Of a stretch of DNA of 64,000 bases, positions 30,889 through 61,593 are shown piece after piece. Positions within the stretch are counted from its first letter, which is position 1; each line of letters begins with the position of its first letter. The stretch spans positions 43,586,001 through 43,650,000 of the forward strand of contig OX597818.1 in the NCBI GenBank assembly GCA_951406725.2, written 5' to 3'. The translations under genes and the position numbers were made by a program. This stretch comes from Octopus vulgaris (taxonomy: Eukaryota). Under the pieces are notes generated by a model. The model searched no databases. It was not told the DNA's origin and was given only the letters and a program-made list of their open reading frames with translations.

Positions 30889-33800
30889 CATAATAATGGT
30901 TTAAAATTTTGGCACAAAGATAGCAATTTCAGAGGAGGAGTTAAATCAATTACATCAAATTATTTTATCAACCCTGAAAGGATGAAAGGTAAAGTCAATC
31001 TCAAAAGAATTTGAACTCAGAATGTAAAGACAGATGAAATACTGCTAAACATTTTGCCTGGAGCACTAACGATTCTGCTACCTCACCACCATAATAATTT
31101 TTTCTACTATATATACACACTATCCAAAAAATTTTCTTACATATTCCAAACTCAACGACCATCAATTTTACAGGTACTATACTACTTTATTCATAATTGA
31201 GGTCTACTAGACTTTTGATACAAATAAAGCAAAATGAAAAGAATAATAAAATAACTTACAACTTCCATTTCTTCTGATTCTGAAGAGGAATCCTCTGAAG
31301 ATTCTTCAGGTTCTACAGGTTTTACAAACTTTTTTGGAGTCTAGCGCAAATAATAAAAATACTAATTGAAACCACTATCAACACAAACAGGTATTTTTCT
31401 GTACAAAATTTCATCTTTTCTGCTGGATCTTAATTTTATATTAACACATCAAGACTCTTTGGTTCCACTTTCAGAGAAGTTGTCTAAGTTTTTTATTATT
31501 ATTATTATTAAACTTTTTCAAACTTTTTACTAAAAAGAAATGTCTTCAAAGTTAGTGATGTTTGATTTCTTATGGCCATAAAATCAGGAGTCTTTTTTTT
31601 TGTATGATTTATTACTTTCAAAGAATGCAAAGAAATGTATCTTCCATAATAATATTAACATAAATGACATCATAATCTGCACGAAGCTCAGACTGGGAGG
31701 ACCTTACTGTAGATATGAAATTCATCAGCATTGGAAACAAAAATTCTCAGTATACAAGAATAAATGATCATTGACACAGTTGAATTATAAGAAACATATG
31801 CAAAAATAAATACATTCAAATCATAAATTACAAATTATTGACAGGGCAAACAATGGTTCAGAATTTGAAAACAGTTGCATCAAAATTCTGTTAGATGCTT
31901 GAATTTTGTGAACTATTTTGAAAACGAAACAAACATTTTATAGCAATGGCATAACTACAGATGTGTACCCCTCTGACTTTGTGTCCTCATAACTTCCAGG
32001 AAAATAGATACTTTTTAATGAAATTTTCAACAAATACCACTTAGATGCTGTGGATTCAGAGTATATAAAGATTTATGGGAAAGAATTTTTTGAGTGGAGT
32101 GGAGTGGATTCACACAATCTGACTTTTTTCCCTTCGCGACTTTCAGGAAAACGGATATGTTTTAGTAAAATTTTATACAAATACTTTTGAAATGACATAG
32201 ATTAAAATTATTAAGAAATTTGTGGGGAAAATTTTTTCTGGGAGGAGGGGGAGGAATTTCAGATCAGGAAGACTAAATAAGTTGGAACTACTTTGGGTAA
32301 TTTTTGGTTATCTCACCCAGCCCCATTAAAAAAAATTGGGCTATCTTCCCGCCAAAAAATTGAGTTAATATGGCAACAAGAGATTGGATTAAAAGAGATC
32401 CATTTGATTCAATACTTCAACACATGCCTCCTCTAATAGGCATAGTATGATTTATTATAAAAATATCAGATTCAGCAAGATGTTTAATTTTTTACCATTT
32501 TCATGTTTATTAATTTTTTTCAGTTTTGTATGATTTGTTATAAAAAATATTATCAGATTCAAAATGATGTTTCATCTTTCCATTTTTTATGTTTATTATT
32601 TTTTTTTTTATTGAGGGCTAAACATTTTATTTGAAGGAGATAACCAAAAATAGATATTTTTTTGTAAAACGGGGGGGGGGGGCAATTTTTTAATGGGGGT
32701 GAGATAACCAAAAAGTACCCTACTTCATTTTGACGGAGATTTTCCCCATTTTTTAACCACAGCCTTTGAAATGATGGGGTGGGGGCATCTTCTTGTGAAA
32801 AAAGTTTTGAAAATTTTTTGTACACCCCCATTCGATCCCACTCCAGACCAATTTTGGTCAATTTTTTTTTGCACTTCAAAACCATGGGAAGAGCCTTTTC
32901 AGTAAAAAAAAAATTTCAAAAATTAATATTTTCTGAGGAAAAAGTGAGTGATTTAAGGGAGATTTGGCAGGTGTTTCTAGCACATCCCAAGACAACCCTC
33001 CTCATTTCTTTCTCACTCTCGAATGTATTGATATTTTTCAATATTTTGCTCCCCAATAAATACATTTATATGCTATAAAAAAAATTGAAAAATTATGATT
33101 TTTTTTTTTGCAACCTCACACCCTGCCCCCGATTGTTTGTTAGAGCCTGAGAAGATCATTACTGGCATTTATCCAGTGATTTAAAAAAAAAAGAGCTATG
33201 TAAAAGACAATTCATTTTAATAGCATACTTTACTGTTAAAAAAATGTTTTTTCTTATACACACACACGGTTTCGCTTGATTGAGGTGGGGTATATTCAAC
33301 CAATGGACCGCGCACGTGTTACTTCAATATCACCATTCCATAAAATATGCTTAATGGGAGAAAAATATTGAAAAAACATCAATACATGTGAGAGTGGGAT
33401 GTGCTAGAAACAACAGCCAAATCTCCCTTGAATCGTACACCTTTTTCCACTGAAAATACTTACATTTTATTCTATTTTATTTTTTTTATCAAAAAGGCTC
33501 CTCCCATAGTTTTTAAGTTAAAAAAATTGGTCCGGAGTGGGATGGTGAGGAATGTGGTGGGGGGTTTAAAAGTTTTTTCACAAAAAGATGCCCCCTCCCA
33601 ATCATTTCAAAGGCTGTGGTGTAATAAAAAAAAGGGGATGGGGGGAATCCCCGACAAAACGGAGTAGTTACAACTTATTTGGTCTTCCTGATCCGAAATT
33701 CCTCTCCCCACTCCCTCGGGAAAATTTCCCCACAAATTTCTTTATAATCATAATCTATGCCGCTTCAAAGGTATTTGTATAAAATTTCATTAAAAAATTT

Positions 33801-36683
33801 TCATTTTCTTAAAAATTATGAGAGAAAAAAAGGCTCAAAATACAGATCTTCACCCGTGCATAACCCCCCACCCAGCCTGCTGGGTGTTAACAAGAATGTA
33901 GAAAACGAATATGAAAAAAAAAAATTGCGCCAAGACCCGGGAGGAGGGGTCAGAAAATTCACAAAATCCGATTTTTCCGTCATAACTTTCGGTAAAATGG
34001 ATATATATATATATATATAAATTTTTTTTTTTTAACAGAAACCCATGTTTTTGGTTATGGATGATCCGATTCTGAAAAAAAAGATTTTAAAAATCGCATT
34101 TAAAAAATTTCAACCGCTCCCCACCCCTTCAGTTCTCACTTTTTCCGGAAATTTCCTATTTTTCTACGTATTTCCCGGAAAAAGTGGAAAATGAGGCGGG
34201 GGGATTGAAATTTTGAAAATGCGATTTCTGAAATTTCTTGTTTCAGAATCGAATCCTCTATAACCAAAAACGTGGGATTCTATATGAAAAAAAAAAAAAA
34301 AAAAAAAAGCGAAAGTTATGACGGAAAATCGGATCTTGTGGATTTTCTGAAAGCCCTCCTCACCCTGCACGGGTCGTTAGCGCAAATTTTTTTTCATATT
34401 CATTCTCTACATAGTTGTTAATACCCAGCAGGCTGGTTTATTATCGTGTAAGTTTTCTGACCCCCACCCCCAGAACTCTTTCCCATAAATCCCTATATAT
34501 TTTAAATCCAGCGCTATTTGTTGAAAATTTCGATAAAAAGTATCCATTTTCCTGGAAGTTATGAGGATGCAATGTCGTGGTGGGTCGGGGTACACATATG
34601 TAGTTATGCCACAGCAACAAATGATATACGATATTGATAAATGGTTGTACTGGAAAGGATTACATAGTGTGAGAAAATGGGAGTTGGGGAAAAAATTCTT
34701 CAAACTAACTTAGACATATTTTGAAATTTTAATCTCCTTTACGTTTTTTGTTATTTTAATTGCAATGTCATGGCCGATTGACATCGTATTTCACTTTATT
34801 GCTCACATATAAATAAATTCTAAGATAGTATAAAACAAGACGATTAGTTTAGGTTCAGTCACGACAAATACCTCCAGAAACTAATCAAAAGTTTGCAAAC
34901 AAATGTTTCTTTTGCAAAAAGCATTGGATTTTAAGGTTACGTTAAAAATTACCAAATTGACATAAACACTGTGTACACAAAATACAATCTTGTCTACATT
35001 CATACATTTTTAACCCTTTCTATACAAGGTGTATTATTTCTTTATTGCCCACAAGGGGCTAAACATAGAAGGGGCAAACAAGGACAAAGGGGTTAAGTCG
35101 ATTACATCGACCCCAGTGCGTAACTGTTACTTAATTTATCGACCCCGAAAGGATGAAAGGCAAAGTCGACCTCGGCGGAATTTGAACTCAGAACGTAATT
35201 GCAGACGAAATACCTATTTCTTTATTACCCACAAGGGGCTAAACAAGGACAAAGGGATTAAGTCGATTAAATCGACCCCAGTGCGTAACTGGTACTTAAT
35301 TTATCGACCCCGAAAGGATGAAAGGCAAAGTCGACCTCGCGGGAATTTGAACTCGGAACGTCACGGCAGACGAAATACGGCTACGCATTTCGCCCGGCGT
35401 GCTAACGTTTCTGCCAACTCGCCGCCTTCCTATACAATGTTTCTGCTTACAGAACAAAATGGGTTAAGAATAATCCGACCATAATAAGAAATAATTTCTC
35501 ATTCATGACAAAGCAATTAAGATAACCGAACAACGTACAATAACAGACAACATGGAATTTAAACAGTATATGACTGAAAAGTGCATAATGATTACCTCAT
35601 ACCCCTTTTCATGGCGCAGCTTAGCCTCCACCGTAGACTCACAATACCGGTTAGTGGGTGTTGTTGCAGGTTGACACCAGCTTGCACACAAACCAGGAAA
35701 TCCATTGCAGCATTCAGAATCATTTGCACGGTAACCATTTATCGAAACACGGCCAAATCAAAACGATATCGCAGCCAATGGCTTATATTTCGGTACCCCT
35801 CGAGCCAAATGGCATTACCGACCGACACACGAGGAACCACGACAGCCAAATTCACCGCATGGGTGAAAAGACGCACGTACCAAAGCGACCACCATAATTG
35901 CGAAAATTTACCGAATCGAGATCTTGTTTGTTTAATCAGTATAATGTAATGATTTAATCATTATTACAAATTATATTTGTAAATTCTAAGTCTAAAATGC
36001 TTGATCTATTAAAAAAAAAAAACTCTTAACCTAATTGATTTTTAATTAATATTTATAGATGGACAATAAAAGTATCTCATTTTTAAAAAAAGTTATTATA
36101 CTTTAGAACTAAGGTACTAATATATAATAAAGTAGAAGTAGATTTAACTTCTTAAATCTCTGCAGCATTATGTGTTTAATTTCCATTGATCATATATATT
36201 TATATGTCATCTTTGTCAATTCAAACTCCTGCATCAAGTACCACCAGACATTTCTTCAACAATGAATGGCCTAGTTATAAACTGGATGTTTAAAATTAGG
36301 GATATGCTTTTTCTATTTCAATGAACCAGCAATCAGATCAAGCAGTGAAAGCTATTAAGGTTTAAAAAAAAATACCCGATATTTTAAATTTTAAGTTATT
36401 TATTTGCCATTAGGTAAATATATATATAGATATTGAATTTTCTCAAAGCCATCATAATACAAGCTTTAACCGATCGTTATTTTTGCTGTGATTTCTTTGG
36501 AGATGCACTCCCATCTATAAATACTCTTAAAAAATGTGGATTCCGTCCCCATTTGCTTGGATTTCAGGTTTTATATTGCAATTCTAACCTGCTTATAAAT
36601 AAATTGATATATTCAAAATATCTCGTCTCTAAATAAAAGAGGAAACCAACATAACAACATACCTTATTCTTTTTAGCAGCCAT
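21074..36683 (-). CDS. NCL: Nucleolin-like protein, copy A (14 coding exons, ~498 aa, 3 RRMs + GAR-like tail)
   Basis: Hand-spliced GT-AG exons with consistent phase: 36663-36683 (MAAKKNK), 31260-31340, 29699-29750, 28478-28687 (acidic), 28300-28353, 27663-27734 (KKRKKETDDGKNAKKAK bipartite NLS), 25487-25604, 25260-25396, 24994-25129, 24587-24726, 23383-23518, 23115-23254, 21264-21425 (G/R-rich), 21074-21111 (GTGKKKTFSDSD*). Total 1497 nt. RNP2/RNP1 motifs LFVKNL/RGFAYIEF and LLIRNL/KGIAFVEF; TPKK and TPAK CDK-type motifs. This architecture is diagnostic of the nucleolin/Nsr1 family. Confidence 0.9.
22614..23005 (+). mobile_element. tRNA-derived SINE (head TGGCTGTGTGGTAAG...GGTTCAGTCCC) with composite tail
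   Basis: Pol III A/B-box-like head followed by a CORE-like TTGGGCAAGTGTCTT segment. Other copies at ~3845-3990, 4803-5150, 12113-12445, 16590-17045, 20265-20600, 21660-21990 and 61110-61460. Confidence 0.85.
31960..34600. mobile_element. Nested foldback/palindromic DNA element(s) in intron 1 of copy A
   Basis: Diverged inverted pairs: ~31960-32090/34480-34600, 32150-32290/33660-33810, 32740-32900/33490-33640, 32960-33050/33355-33430 and 33870-34160/34170-34437. Confidence 0.75.
35032..35428 (-). mobile_element. tRNA-derived SINE with Meta-domain-like core, tandemly duplicated
   Basis: GGCGGCGAGTTGGCAGAAACGTTAGC head and GCCTTTCATCCTTTCGGGGTCGATAAA core. Copies at ~25865-26090, 30895-31090, 40710-40900 and 63230-63435. 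Confidence 0.8.
35480..35970 (-). other. Conserved structured non-coding element in intron 1 of copy A (candidate poison exon 35596-35922 or intronic ncRNA)
   Basis: The reverse complement aligns nearly letter-for-letter with 42445-42960 over ~500 nt, whereas adjacent intron aligns poorly. Long-range sense-strand pairings are visible. Confidence 0.75.
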
Positions 36684-36850
36684 TTCACTTTGTTTTCTGG
36701 AATATTATATCGAACAAAATTTTCACTTGCTCTGAATTTTCTCTGTAAAAGAAGAATGAATACGTGCGCACAGTCTAATTCACTTTATGGCGTAGCCACT
36801 ACGATATAGTTTCGTATTTACTGATTAAATATCTCCAGAATTTGATTTTG
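36684..36850 (-). promoter_or_regulatory. 5' UTR/core promoter of nucleolin copy A with a pyrimidine-rich (TCT/TOP-like) stretch
   Basis: Homologous to 41450-41616 (shared ATCAAAT-CTGGAGA...ATACGAAACTA...GTGGCTA and CCAGAAAACAAAGTGAAATG). Sense TTCATTCTTCTTTTAC lies at ~36745-36760, just downstream of GTGCGCACGT. Confidence 0.55.
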
Positions 36851-41449: not shown

Positions 41450-41616
41450 AATCAAATGCTGGAGACATTTATTCAATAGATACGAAACTACATGGTGGTG
41501 GCTATACCTTGCCACTGCTAAGAAAAGTGTACGTACAGCTTCGAGCTACAGTTACAGAGAACATTCATAGCAGCTGAACTTTTTATTCGGTATATTATCC
41601 CAGAAAACAAAGTGAA
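41450..41616 (+). promoter_or_regulatory. 5' UTR/core promoter of nucleolin copy B
   Basis: Aligns with the reverse complement of 36684-36850; homology fades beyond this. Confidence 0.55.
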
Positions 41617-44600
41617 ATGGCTGCTAGAAAGAATAAGGTATGTTACGATAGTTTCCTGTTTTATTTAGAGGCTAAAATATTTTGAATTACATAAAATTTA
41701 TTTGTAAACGGGTTTATATTTACAACATTAATCTTGAAGGAAATGGGAGTGTAAAATATTTCTAAATCTCCCACAAATCTCCCCGAATTACAAATAACTA
41801 TTAAGATCTCGTATAACTACATTATTTAGGAAATTAGCAATATATATAAATATATATATAGATAAATATTTATATGTATTTATATATATGCATCTTAGGA
41901 CAAAATACACGGATTTTGCTTAAAATGGAAAATATCAAGTACTTGTTTTAACCTAAATTTTTCTCCCATCTTCATCTGATTGCTTATTTCCTAGAAATGG
42001 GGAAAAAGCAAGATATATGCATTTGTCTATATCATTTTTATGTATATTATTATATACATATGCAACCTTAATTTTAAACAACTTGGTTTAGTTTGTAAAT
42101 AAAAGAGGCCATTGTTTGTAGAAGCTGTGAAAAATCAACGGTGGCACTTGATCCACGAGTTTGAACTGACAAAGACGACTACATACACATTCTTAATATA
42201 GGTCAACTGAAATTAGCAGAACGTAATACGGCGATAGATTTAAGAAGTTAGGACTTCTTTGTGTATTTATTATATTACTACATAAAATGCATTCCTGAGT
42301 ACATATGGTTGTGAAATTCTGATATTTTATTTTCTCTAGTTACCCTTTTAGAAACAATAACATTTAAAAACCTTTTATCGTTGCGATTTGCGGAAGACTT
42401 TTATTATATCATTATTTAGGTCCTGTTCGGAATTTAGAGGATCTAATTTGTAATAATGATTAAATCATTACATTTTACTGATTAAACAAACAAGATCTCG
42501 ATTCGGTAAATTTTCGCAATTATGGTGTCGCTTTGGTACGTGCGTCTTTTCACCCATGCGGTGAATTTGCCTGTCGTGGTTCCTCGTGTGTCGGTCAGTA
42601 ATGCCATTGGCTCGAGAGCTACTGAAAATAAGCCATTGGCTGCGATATCGTTTTGATTTGGCCGTGTTTCGGTAAATGGTTACTGTGCAAACATCAAGTG
42701 GTTATCGACTATCACATGATTCTGGATGCTGCAATGGATTTCCTGGTTTGTGTGCAAGCTGGTGTCAACCTGGTCTTACAACAACACCCACTAACCGGTA
42801 TTGTGAGTCTACGGTGAAGGCTAAGCTGCGCCATGAAAAGGGGTATGAGGTAAACATGATGCACTTTTTCAGTTATATACTGTTAAATTCTATGTTGTCT
42901 GTCATTGCACGTTGCTCGGTTATCTTAATTGCTTTGTCATGAATGAGAAATGATTTCTTGTCATGGTCAGAATTATTCTCACGAGAGTTCGTTCTGTCGG
43001 CACAAACTATTTATTGTACAACACACCATTGTATCAAAAAGTTTACGCAATTGTGTTATACATCTTGTAGAATAGCCTGTTTATATATATCAATTTTTAT
43101 CTATTTATTTCTATTTGTTAACTTTTGATGTAATATTAAAATGCGGGCCCCAAATATGAAGATACGTCTGTTTGGGTAGCTTATGAGTTGTGTTTACTTC
43201 TGGTTTTCTTGTCTCTAACCACTTCAGATAAGTGAGCAAGAAATCGGAATACGATGTCTATCAACCATGACATTTGCAATTAAAATAACAAGAAACGTAA
43301 CGAAGATAAGATTTTCAAAACGTGAAGTTTAACTGAAAATTTTGAGCAATCAATGTTGCATATTTTCTTTTCATAAACCCTTTTCTCGAACTGTGATATC
43401 ATTTCTAGCACAAAGAATCTGTTAACCATTGTGTTAAAATAAATAAATATATCGTTTGTCATTGTAAAATGTTTGGTTGATCCTTAAAATAGTTCACGAA
43501 ATTCAGGCATCTAACTGAATTTTTAAGCAGTTATTCTCTGCTTATGAACTATTATATCTGTCTCGTTCATTAATAATTCATAATTAACGACAAAGAAATA
43601 TTTTTCATGTTTTTTTAATTTTTTTTATTTGATATTGCCTATGGTCACTTCGTATTTAGTGAATTTTATTTTCTAATGCGGATGAGTTTCATGACTATCA
43701 TAAGGTCCAACCGATCTTGATCAGTGTGTAGATAGTAGTATTAGTGATGTTTTATTAAAATAATTTCTCTGCATTTTTTTATATTTTGGGGAGATATGTG
43801 GAGGAAGGGCGGTGAACATAAGATTGAAATGCTTCCAGCGTACTCTGTTAAGAAATGAACTTTTCATTAAATATGTTTTAAAAAAAGTATTGCCATGGAA
43901 AACATGATTTTATGACGTTCTTCGCCAATCATTTAGAAGCAAGATTCAAGAGCAGAACGTGTTAAATGCTTTCGTGGTAGGAAATCGACCAACACTAGAG
44001 AGTATTTGATAAATAAATTCAATACTAATCGGTCCCTTAAACACGAGTTCTCTAATAGTGAGACCAGAACCTCTTGGCGGTAATGAATTCAGATCTAGTA
44101 TAAAAGAAAACATAGAATCGCTGGATAAAGTAATGCTGGGATGCGAAATAGGTTTAGACGGCTACTGCAGTTCAGAAGTATCACAGGCTTTTGTGAAGCA
44201 TTCAGTTGGGGTACAATAATTTTATACAAAATATACTTATTTTGTTTGCTTATATTTTCCCGATGATGTACTTGAGTTTGAATATTTGTTTCAATTACTG
44301 AATTTTATAATTTGAAATAGAATCCAAAAAAGTCAGCTGAAGCTGAAGAATCTAATGAAGAGTCTTTTTCAGAACCAGAAGAAATGGATGCTGTAAGTTC
44401 ATATATTCTATTTTTATTTTCTTATTTCAAAGTTAATAAATATTAATATGCTTATCATAATTTATTTTATGCCGCCCTTTCCATGCTGTCATGGTTTGGA
44501 CATATCATCATTGTCTCGGAATCACTACATTCCTAAACGTGTTGCAAGATATTATCTTGCTCGTACATTTCATTTTTTTTTTTTGCATGGTTCCTCTGGC

Positions 44601-56600: not shown

Positions 56601-59600
56601 AAGAGAAATATTTTAAGTTTCACTCTGGATATCATTGCATTCACTACTGCTGCCTGACATTATTTAAACCCTTGTAATTTGAAGCATCTGGTTCAACCTG
56701 TCATGTGCTATGTTTGCTACATTTTTTTTTTTTTATCTACTGCATTCCAAAAATTGTTCAATTTCAGGTTCTTTATTTCTAAACCTGAAGCTTATAAAGT
56801 TTTAAAAGGGATAATACATTATGGAGATAAGAGGAAGATAAAGATTTAGAAAAAATTAGAGAATACAATTCATATTATAAGAATGCCAGACAGTACATGG
56901 CAAGTGTTTGTCTAGTGAAATAGTTAATACTAATGCAGTAATAATTTACATCAATATTTTGATTTCAGTATGAATAGATAAACTTGAGTTGTCTCAGATA
57001 CACTGTTACCATTTGAGTTAATTATACAAAATGCCCTTTCCTGTTCTCTGAACAATATAATTTCAGTTATAAACTCTTATTTTGTTTTTTTCAGATGATT
57101 CAAAATCACTGTTTGTGAAGAACTTGTCCTATGATGATTCAGAAGAGAGTATTAGGAACAGTCTGATGGAAATATTTCCTGATGCACGAAATGTCCGAAT
57201 TCCATGCAAGAGAGATACACATAGAGGGTAAGTTTACAGAGATGGTTTTATTGAAATTATGCTTACCAGTTAGACAGTCACATATTTAGATATTCTCTTT
57301 TCAGTAGTATCAGATGTGTTTTGCAATACAAATTTTTTCATTTAGCAAATGTAAAAGCACATTAATTTAACTAGTAAGGGTTGGTACAAGCAAGTTTTAT
57401 ATAAAAAACATTTTTTCCTAAATGTAATATGTGTGTTTTTGTTTCTTCAGGTTTGCCTATGTTGAGTTTGATACTGCTGAAGAAGTAAAGGATGCCGTTG
57501 AAAACAAACAGGGGACCGAATGTGGGGACCGAAAATTGTTCTTAGACTATGCAGGAGGTACTTCACGGCAAAGGAGAGGTTTTAGAGATGGTAATTTTAT
57601 TTCCTTTATTAAACTTTCATTTGATAGAAATTTGGATTGAAATTAAATGATTTACTTTGAATTAACTTAATTTTAATGTATGTATTTTCTTTCCTCTTTG
57701 TCAATTTAAGATCAACCTGAAGAATCCAATGTGCTACTAGTGAGAAATCTATCCTATGAGACAACAGAAGATTCTTTGCGATCATATTTCAGAGATGTTA
57801 CTGCTGTACGAATGCCAATATTTTCAGATTCAGGAAAACCAAAAGGGTGTGTAAAATGACTTTGTTATTTATAAGCAAGTTAACATTTGTTCATGATATA
57901 GTGTATTTTTTTGTTTGATTTTGGTATAATGAATTATTTTCAAAGTGGAATTTTCCATCTTTTAAAATTTTTATTTTAGAATTGCGTTTGTGGAATTTGA
58001 ATCTGTATCAAAAGCCAAAAGTGCTTTGAACAAATATGATGGTACTGATATTGATGGCAGAACTGTTTCCTGCTGTTTTGCAAGAAACAGAGGTGACAAC
58101 GATGGCAGAAATCGAGGTACAGTAGCTTTTGATTTTATCTCATTTTGTTAGGACCTATTGTGAATGAAATATTAACCCTTTAGTGTCCGCATTAATCTGC
58201 CAAAATTAATGCTTTTTCATCCACATTGTTTTGAACTAATCATGCATTATCTTGTAGCTTTGAGATTTTGATGAGGTAGCTGTTAATTCTTAAAATGATA
58301 TTGTAGGGTTGGTGTGAGAGACCAGATCTGGCCATTTTGAACATAAAACAGGCAGAATACTTTTGGCCAGATATGGCCGGTTTAAATGCTAAAGGGTTAA
58401 AGTACATTCTGTCAGATATTTTAAAAGAGGAGAAACCAATCATGTATGAGGTGCATTTGAGTAAAATTGACTGACACTTGGCCTACCAAACCCATTTCAT
58501 GTCATATTTTCTTTTTGCACCAGCAACCTCGTTTCATTATAAATTTAAACATTTCTTTTTAACTATGTATATGTTGCAGCGTGGAAGGTGTTTGTAAGCC
58601 ATTTAAGAAACACACAAAAGCCGTTCGATTCACTTCAACATTTAAGTTTAATTTGTCAAAATATTTTCGTTGCTATAAGACCGCAACCTGTTCACTGACA
58701 AAAATATTTTGACAAATTAAACTTAAATGTTGAAGTGAATCGAACGGCTTTTGTGTGTTTCTTAAATGGCTTACAAACACCTTCCATGCTGCAATTGTTT
58801 TTGTTCCAGCTCACGATCTCAGATCAAATCACTTGCTATGCAAGTACATCTCCGTAATATGTATATGTTCCAGTTCATTATATAAACTTACCACATTGAT
58901 GTATAGCAGGAGTGTCACTGGTGACTCCCGCAGTACAGAATAAATATTATATCAATTCTGTACTGTGGGAATCACCAGTAACACACGTGATAGGCAAAGT
59001 GTTCAGTATAATGCAATATTGTCTATCGGGATTTTTTCTGCAGCTTTTCGGCTATATTGCATATTACTAAAATTATATTTAAATAATTAGACCTTTATAA
59101 GTTTAGGTGTCTAAGTATAAAGTTGTCATTTATGGTGTCGGGTCTACACAGGGAAATGTTGATGGCTAATTCATTTTTTGTTTTTATTAGTTCCAATATA
59201 AGTATGATGAAATCCTGTTCATGAAAGTCAACAGCTATGGTTTTCTGAATTTTTAACTTTATTTGCAGGTTATGCTGGTGGAAGACGCAGTGGCGGTTAT
59301 GGTGGACGCAGTGGAGGTTATGGTGGCGGTGGCTACGGTGGTGGTGGTGGCGGCGGCGGCGGCGGTTATGGAGGTCGCAGTGGTGGTTATGGTGGCCGAA
59401 GTGGTGGTTATGGTAGCGGTGGCTATGGTGGTGGTGGTGGCTACGGTGGTGGTGGTGGTGGCTATGGCGGAGGTGGCTATGGCAGTAGACGTAGTGGTGG
59501 AGGCTACAGTAGCGGTGGAGGCTACGGTGGTGGTGGTGGTGGTTATGGTGGCGGCGGAAGCTACGGCAGTGGTGGTGGTGGTTACGGCAGCAGCTATGGT

Positions 59601-61473: not shown

Positions 61474-61593
61474 ACGCTTACAGCACCTAGGTTTCCCAAG
61501 CAATCACCCATCTAAGTACTAATTAGGCTCAATGTTGCTTAACTTAGGTGATCAGACGAGAACCGGTCCTTTCAACGTGATATGGCCGTAAGT
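61474..61593 (-). pseudogene. 5S rRNA-derived copy (probable pseudogene)
   Basis: Reverse complement ACTTACGGCCATATCACGTTGAAAGGACCGGTTCTCGTCTGATCACCTAAGTTAAGCAACATTGAGCCTAATTAGTACTTAGATGGGTGATTGCTTGGGAAACCTAGGTGCTGTAAGC is full-length mollusc-type 5S with box A and box C. It has several CpG-type transitions, no oligo-T terminator, and is a single copy. Confidence 0.85.

Follow-up and report, generated by a model that had tools for sequence, protein, structure and literature searches.

Feedback at the level of splicing is known for ribosomal proteins, for NOP56 and for many RNA-binding proteins, and a mechanism of this kind is not new. Precedents that combine an alternative donor with nonsense-mediated decay (NMD) are L10a (PMC4937301), GRP7/8 (PMC12218528) and NOP56 (PMC7038934). 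The L10ARE of rpl-1/RPL10A spans 39 nt, is bound by L10a, has been shown to act through NMD and is conserved from worms to mammals (PMC4937301), whereas the octopus element described here comprises ~300 nt, is present in three paralogs and is known from sequence and transcript contigs. GRP7 and GRP8 resemble the octopus genes in being paralogs that encode RRM and glycine-rich proteins, with an alternative intronic 5' splice site beside a predicted stem; for these genes auto- and cross-regulation via NMD is described, with the stem supported across 91 species and the feedback shown (PMC12218528), whereas the octopus rod lacks statistical support and the feedback is a proposal. Similarly, the structured 45ABC element is common to the three paralogs RBP45A/B/C, has an alternative donor at a stem (in octopus a predicted one) and mediates cross-regulation (PMC13485355), but there it is a cassette exon with both splice sites in use, whereas in octopus only the donor was seen used. 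Like the octopus genes, NOP56 encodes a nucleolar protein and has a downstream alternative donor, which retains a structured part of the intron in an NMD substrate, the switch being the C/D snoRNA SNORD86 (PMC7038934); the octopus element, in contrast, matches nothing in Rfam, and neither conserved boxes nor a guide to rRNA were found in it. As far as comparison with Rfam goes, the element is homologous to none of L10ARE, the GRP7/8 motif, 45ABC and SNORD86, and the open-access literature yielded neither splicing feedback for nucleolin nor a cephalopod report of the element.

The window, that is, the whole stretch of 64,000 nucleotides of Octopus vulgaris DNA that was analysed, contains two divergently oriented gene copies, A on the minus strand (ATG at 36683) and B on the plus strand (ATG at 41617), which are inverted and 6.5 kb apart. 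The host gene is nucleolin, with an acidic N-terminus, three RRM-like domains, a glycine/arginine (GAR) tail and named orthologs. One exon of copy A is identical to an Octopus protein named nucleolin over the aligned part (68% of the query), and a close cluster member of that protein maps on copy A exon by exon. The earlier note had described the element in two copies, both of which stand, but a DNA search of the genome returned three places, one of which had been missed: it belongs to intron 1 of a third nucleolin paralog, C, located 13.5 kb outside the window. Three proteins of this type are likewise present in Argonauta. When 11 RRM regions were placed in a tree, copy A grouped with one of the three (81/84), another was the closest to copy B (84% identity), and the remaining one was unplaced. 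The sequences thus suggest that the triplication may be older than the split of octopus and Argonauta.

Several features were observed around these genes. A 5S rRNA copy lies just downstream of copy B (window 61475-61593, minus strand; Rfam 90 bits), and the introns of A and B contain long palindromic or inverted repeats (33872-34436 and 58574-58794) that could form double-stranded RNA. The nonamer TACAGAGAA, which we take to be a METTL16-type motif, is found in the 5' UTR of A (36739-36747, minus) and of B (41553-41561); with five occurrences in 134 kb, it is near chance. In run X4, a loose end of 25 letters at 41557 had no match in the 134 kb examined.

Intron 1 follows 21 coding nucleotides of exon 1 and carries the element whose parts are collected in Table 1. 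The motifs that had been read from the letters of A and B were recovered: the branch-point-like TACTGAT (A 35941-35935, B 42476-42482), a hairpin upstream of it (A 35963-35947, B 42454-42470), an AG (A 35924-23, B 42493-94) followed by ATC TCG ATT CGG TAA, phase 0 for the intron, and the donor GAG/GTAA at the foot of the rod, its GT (A 35595-94, B 42850-51) lying 6 nt past the last predicted rod pair. Copy C keeps the core and the donor without the block of hairpin, branch point, AG and stop, and its best local match to that block at the expected place is no better than shuffles. TACTRAY occurs once in intron 1 of A, twice in B and not at all in C. The AG of copy C nearest the core was rejected as a homolog of the A/B AG because of a 19-nt offset. 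It opens a stop-free frame of 330 nt (110 codons) in phase with exons 1 and 2, which for that one frame is matched by 39 of 20,000 shuffles and lacks a coding substitution pattern, and an AG 12 nt further up is immediately followed by TGA; both score poorly.

Table 1. Coordinates of exons and intron-1 features in the nucleolin paralogs (window positions unless stated otherwise).
Feature	Position	Strand	Remarks
Copy A exon 1, coding part (MAAKKNK)	36663..36683	-	followed by the normal donor AAG/GTATGT; protein P0003 starts MAAKKNKTPKK
Copy A first read-through stop, codon 40	36564..36566	-	968 nt before the alternative junction
Copy A 5' block	35923..35977	-	hairpin, TACTGAT, weak AG; 95% identical to B, absent from C
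Copy A element, AG to GT	35596..35922	-	327 nt; stop 35910-35908; core 35867-35596 common to all three paralogs
Copy A predicted rod	35602..35698	-	basal strands within the two longest invariant runs
Copy A alternative donor GT (GAG/GTAATC)	35594..35595	-	contig joins element end to copy A exon 2
Copy A conserved intronic flank past the donor	35474..35593	-	90-92% A/B over 120 nt; ~60 nt shared with C
Copy A exon 2	31260..31340	-	acceptor 31340; in-frame Met is the start of three annotated isoforms
Copy B exon 1, coding part	41617..41637	+	normal join to 44321 in runs X3, X4
Copy B first read-through stop, codon 23	41683..41685	+	1164 nt before the alternative junction
Copy B 5' block (hairpin, TACTGAT, weak AG)	42440..42494	+	
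Copy B element	42495..42849	+	355 nt; predicted rod 42741-42843
Copy B alternative donor GT (GAG/GTAAAC)	42850..42851	+	join to B exon 2 not seen
Copy B exon 2	44321..44392	+	acceptor 44321
Copy C element	L003:1534-1863 (G000:C5), 13.5 kb beyond the window	minus	330 nt, open frame

The core of the element is 97% identical between A and B, 94% between A and C and 91% between B and C (aligned columns, gaps not counted), as compared with 85%, 82% and 78% for the six RRM exons and 77%, 66% and 58% for four-fold sites. Among the paralogs, the element is thus better conserved than both the coding exons and the neutral background, a selection-like pattern. Conservation between A and B also extends 55 nt upstream of the AG and 120 nt downstream of the GT, and of the downstream part copy C shares ~60 nt; intron 1 of C is otherwise unalignable except for the flank of exon 1 and a repeat. 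The two longest invariant runs, of 38 and 36 nt, correspond to the basal strands of the predicted rod plus the donor. A second intron-1 block conserved between A and B was noted at 34719-34810 and 43228-43320 (84% over 93 nt); an A-type contig of run X4 covers this block.

A protein-coding alternative exon was rejected: the frame is not kept, synonymous changes (4/16 and 7/27 against 23% expected) give no coding signature in the element, and a search of 1.84 billion representatives with the element peptide gave two spurious repeat matches and no credible homolog, while two of its words were absent from all 27 proteins checked. At the nucleotide level, an RNA model built from two sequences found only A and B in the 144 kb searched, copy C lying outside that sequence, and a metagenome pattern scan gave no matches. 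The element was present in 20 of the 24 public runs listed, none of the 20 being recorded as RNA, and the run search returned shares of 0.75 and 0.73 for organisms C and D (letters of organisms, not of paralogs).

Splice sites were scored with matrices built from the 30 acceptors and 25 donors of the three genes, a small set. The element donors score 5.7, 7.2 and 7.2, within the range of the 25 true donors (2.3-13.2) though under the 12.7 of the exon-1 donor, and rank first of 156 GTs in intron 1 of B, third of 354 in C and sixteenth of 269 in A. The conservation of the block and the strength of its donor are more than chance. The candidate AG, with scores of -4.3 and -3.1, falls below all 30 true acceptors (-1.2 to 18.9) and, at rank 96 of 224 in A and 44 of 116 in B, is not above chance; neither is the hairpin (-1.4 kcal/mol in a 19-nt window that omits its last base), perfect 7-bp hairpins occurring 7, 7 and 9 times in the three introns. 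These scores bear on the proposal of the earlier note that the element is a poison cassette exon, in which the weak AG and the donor would both be used and the stop at codon 5 would trigger NMD in A and B. The motifs for such an exon are all present, its donor is used (see below), the A/B conservation reaches beyond both sites, by 55 nt at the AG and by 120 nt at the GT, and 45ABC offers a precedent in three RBP45 paralogs (PMC13485355), but the AG scores below every true acceptor and the branch A lies only 14 nt from the putative exon. Nor are the AG and the stop kept wherever the element is kept: copy C lacks the block, and the AG nearest its core gives an open 110-codon frame. Loss of AG and stop from an element that is itself retained, which the earlier note had named as refuting its proposal, is found, in a paralog rather than an ortholog.

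Contigs of four runs (X1-X4, from four studies) were compared with positions 41500-44450 of copy B, with the stretches of its intron 1 that have no contig cover excluded from the evidence; contigs drop rare forms. The normal exon 1-exon 2 join of copy B is present in X3 and X4 and the exon 2-exon 3 join in X2, and X2, X3 and X4 therefore contain spliced RNA; no spliced join was seen in X1, and the 14 RNA labels among the 20 runs are guesses. One of the four joins that the earlier note had asked for, 35596->31340, was found in one of the four runs. In record 14 of X3 (464 nt, depth 20.8), the element can be read as far as 42849 and is succeeded there by the opening 30 letters of copy A exon 2; these letters are unique in the window and stand after an AG. 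The record thus joins B-type element letters to exon 2 of A. It may derive from an A allele without the two deletions, or be a chimera produced in assembly at the tail of the element, where A and B have the same last 32 nt. Under either origin, the words across the donor-acceptor junction must exist. The corresponding join of the B donor to B exon 2 (42849->44321) was not seen in X1-X4. Contigs of X2-X4 at 42570-42817 suggest A alleles without the 25-nt and 6-nt deletions of the A copy in the window, a hint of polymorphism or of A-B gene conversion.

On the acceptor side, the predicted joins 36663->35922 and 41637->42495 were not seen, with no join or loose end at the candidate AG among the contig pieces listed for all four runs; instead, unspliced contigs cross the AG unbroken in each of them. 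Record 2 of X2 (1005 nt) runs from upstream of A exon 1, across its donor unspliced, to 35944, and 712 of its letters equal the genomic distance 36655-35944 without a gap. The alternative donor is likewise crossed unspliced by contigs in X1, X2 and X4. No single contig in the four runs covers exon 1, element and exon 2; between exon 1 and the alternative donor there are overlapping unspliced contigs. An NMD-targeted cassette isoform would be rare and may drop from contigs, and we regard the cassette as unlikely without dismissing it. Of the original poison-exon proposal, unproductive splicing remains plausible, given the 35596->31340 join and the conservation among paralogs, but its cassette acceptor is unsupported.

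The join and the conservation could also be devoid of any regulatory role, with gene conversion keeping the copies alike and the join reflecting cryptic splicing noise or an assembly artefact. The inverted arrangement of A and B at 6.5 kb and the A alleles with B-like letters suggested by contigs would suit such an origin, as would the presence of the join in one contig only. Conversion would, however, have to strike the same 300 nt in three copies yet spare the exons, the core of C is 91-94% identical where the rest of its intron is unalignable beyond the exon-1 flank and the repeat, and a join cannot arise without words that cross from donor to acceptor precisely at GT..AG. We consider the absence of a role distinctly improbable.

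Rather than a cassette exon, the element probably mediates unproductive splicing through an alternative 5' splice site. We tentatively propose, at somewhat less than an even chance, that the second donor at the 3' end of the element extends exon 1 and thereby introduces a premature stop in all three copies, with NMD as the likely outcome. Use of the distal donor would keep the first part of the intron, lengthening exon 1 by 1.07 kb in A, 1.21 kb in B and 4.0 kb in C, and read-through translation would end at codon 40, 23 and 39, respectively. In the inferred isoform, these stops lie 968, 1164 and 3921 nt before the junction, in each case more than 50 nt upstream. A stop far before an exon junction marks a transcript as an NMD substrate, and the extended isoform is therefore predicted to be one. 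Molecules joined at the donor would start at exon 1 and be degraded by NMD, the donor choice being regulated via the predicted rod just upstream, and in some molecules the 5' part of the intron appears to be removed slowly or never, as the unspliced contigs indicate. The extension of exon 1 needs neither an acceptor nor a stop within the element, which fits their loss in copy C and explains that frame and stop are not kept inside it (327, 355 and 330 nt, with C open). The 5' block of A and B may then be a minor or decoy acceptor, or contain sites that act at the DNA level.

Against the extension stands that the join comes from one contig in one of four runs (four of the 24 listed), which may be a chimera, having B-type letters and exon 2 of A, and that pre-mRNA, or an intron retained in full, may account for the unspliced contigs. 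Furthermore, the A/B conservation begins ~55 nt before the AG, over the branch-like motif, as in cassette exons, the extension in copy C would reach 4 kb, no fold exceeds its shuffles in stability, and gene conversion could inflate the identity of A and B.

Among annotated proteins, the exon-2 Met is the first residue of P0004, P0006 and P0023; counted by species, this start is found in two of four O. sinensis and one of three named O. bimaculoides isoforms of the A ortholog. Such isoforms would be expected if stop-containing sequence sometimes precedes exon 2, which is a hint only. They also suit an alternative first exon, in which an internal promoter near the 5' block would yield transcripts in which the donor is spliced to exon 2 and nucleolin is read from the exon-2 Met, with ~31 N-terminal residues fewer. 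The 5' block presumably also contains a palindrome of the homeodomain type and a site of the forkhead type, and a copy B contig of X2 (depth 141) that begins at 43514 within intron 1, enters exon 2 without splicing and continues spliced beyond it indicates that internal starts may exist. However, the element contains several upstream ATGs and stops, contigs cannot show starts, the unspliced contigs of X2 and X4 extend well upstream of the block, and much of the intron around the core has a CpG observed/expected ratio at least as high as that of the core itself (0.9-1.1). An alternative first exon appears improbable. X2 has no contig for copy B exon 1, and window 43514-44392 may represent an internal start or a retained 3' part; a block common to A (31852-31940) and B (43465-43553) sits at the 43514 contig start.

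For each of the three copies, folding predicts the rod just upstream of the donor (A 35698-35602, B 42741-42843), with a high share of G-U pairs. Its stability, calculated in hand-picked windows, corresponds to z of -0.2, -1.6 and -1.9, with 110, 24 and 16 of 300 shuffles as stable, and the whole element (z +0.23 and -0.51) folds like its shuffles, with the minimum-energy fold of the entire copy A element differing from the rod. Folding in sliding windows of 80, 120 and 160 nt revealed no window consistently stable across the copies (lowest z -2.4, in one copy), and one of 95 pairs shows two-sided change, three sequences giving this covariation count no power. The predicted rod is thus a lead, not a result. 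A longer rod of 5' and 3' arms drawn by eye was rejected, since 47, 6 and 60 of 500 shuffles equalled it, its register differs in C and the ensemble lacks it.

Vertebrate nucleolin introns host snoRNAs, and the element could itself be, or give rise to, a separate non-coding RNA of the sno/scaRNA type within the intron, with the donor join secondary. The element is GC-richer than its intron, and SNORD86 sits between alternative donors of NOP56 (PMC7038934). By contrast, no Rfam family reached the gathering score (the lowest E for the region was 0.78, and the element itself had no meaningful match), rRNA mimicry was not found, the longest perfect antisense match to the rDNA unit of the same genome is 10 nt and within shuffles, and no pair of C and D boxes is kept in all three copies. 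A C/D or H/ACA snoRNA, for which a Rfam match, conserved boxes or an rRNA guide would be expected, accordingly found no support, the guide comparison covering perfect matches, and a non-coding RNA of any such kind seems highly improbable. Elsewhere in intron 1, C-box-like and D-box-like words 40 nt apart were observed in A (31690-31731, minus) and, weaker, in B (43677-43720), without an rRNA antisense match of at least 10 nt.

Within the proposed extension of exon 1, feedback by nucleolin itself together with cross-regulation among the paralogs would be the most economical regulator, a possibility that our analysis leaves on the doubtful side. The known nucleolin motifs were taken from PMC2919729 and 10.1101/2021.06.09.447752; NRE is absent from the element and ECM occurs at best with 3-4 mismatches, an absence that is compatible with binding of nucleolin to the element. 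In human cells, nucleolin knockdown raises the use of latent donors, including four sites in NCL itself (PMC8890436), and this is the wrong sign for negative feedback by nucleolin. In its fullest form, which we rate as unlikely, octopod nucleolin would bind the 300-nt element of its three tandem paralogs and switch on the second donor, one circuit would set their summed dose, and the element of C may in addition serve as an in-frame exon of 110 codons.

If true, nucleolin would join the ribosome-biogenesis genes that are restrained by unproductive splicing, with no earlier case of a splicing feedback loop on nucleolin as far as the open-access literature shows. The locus would provide a defined RNA and a defined junction open to assay and, with its three paralogs, a natural test of how dosage is shared after gene triplication.
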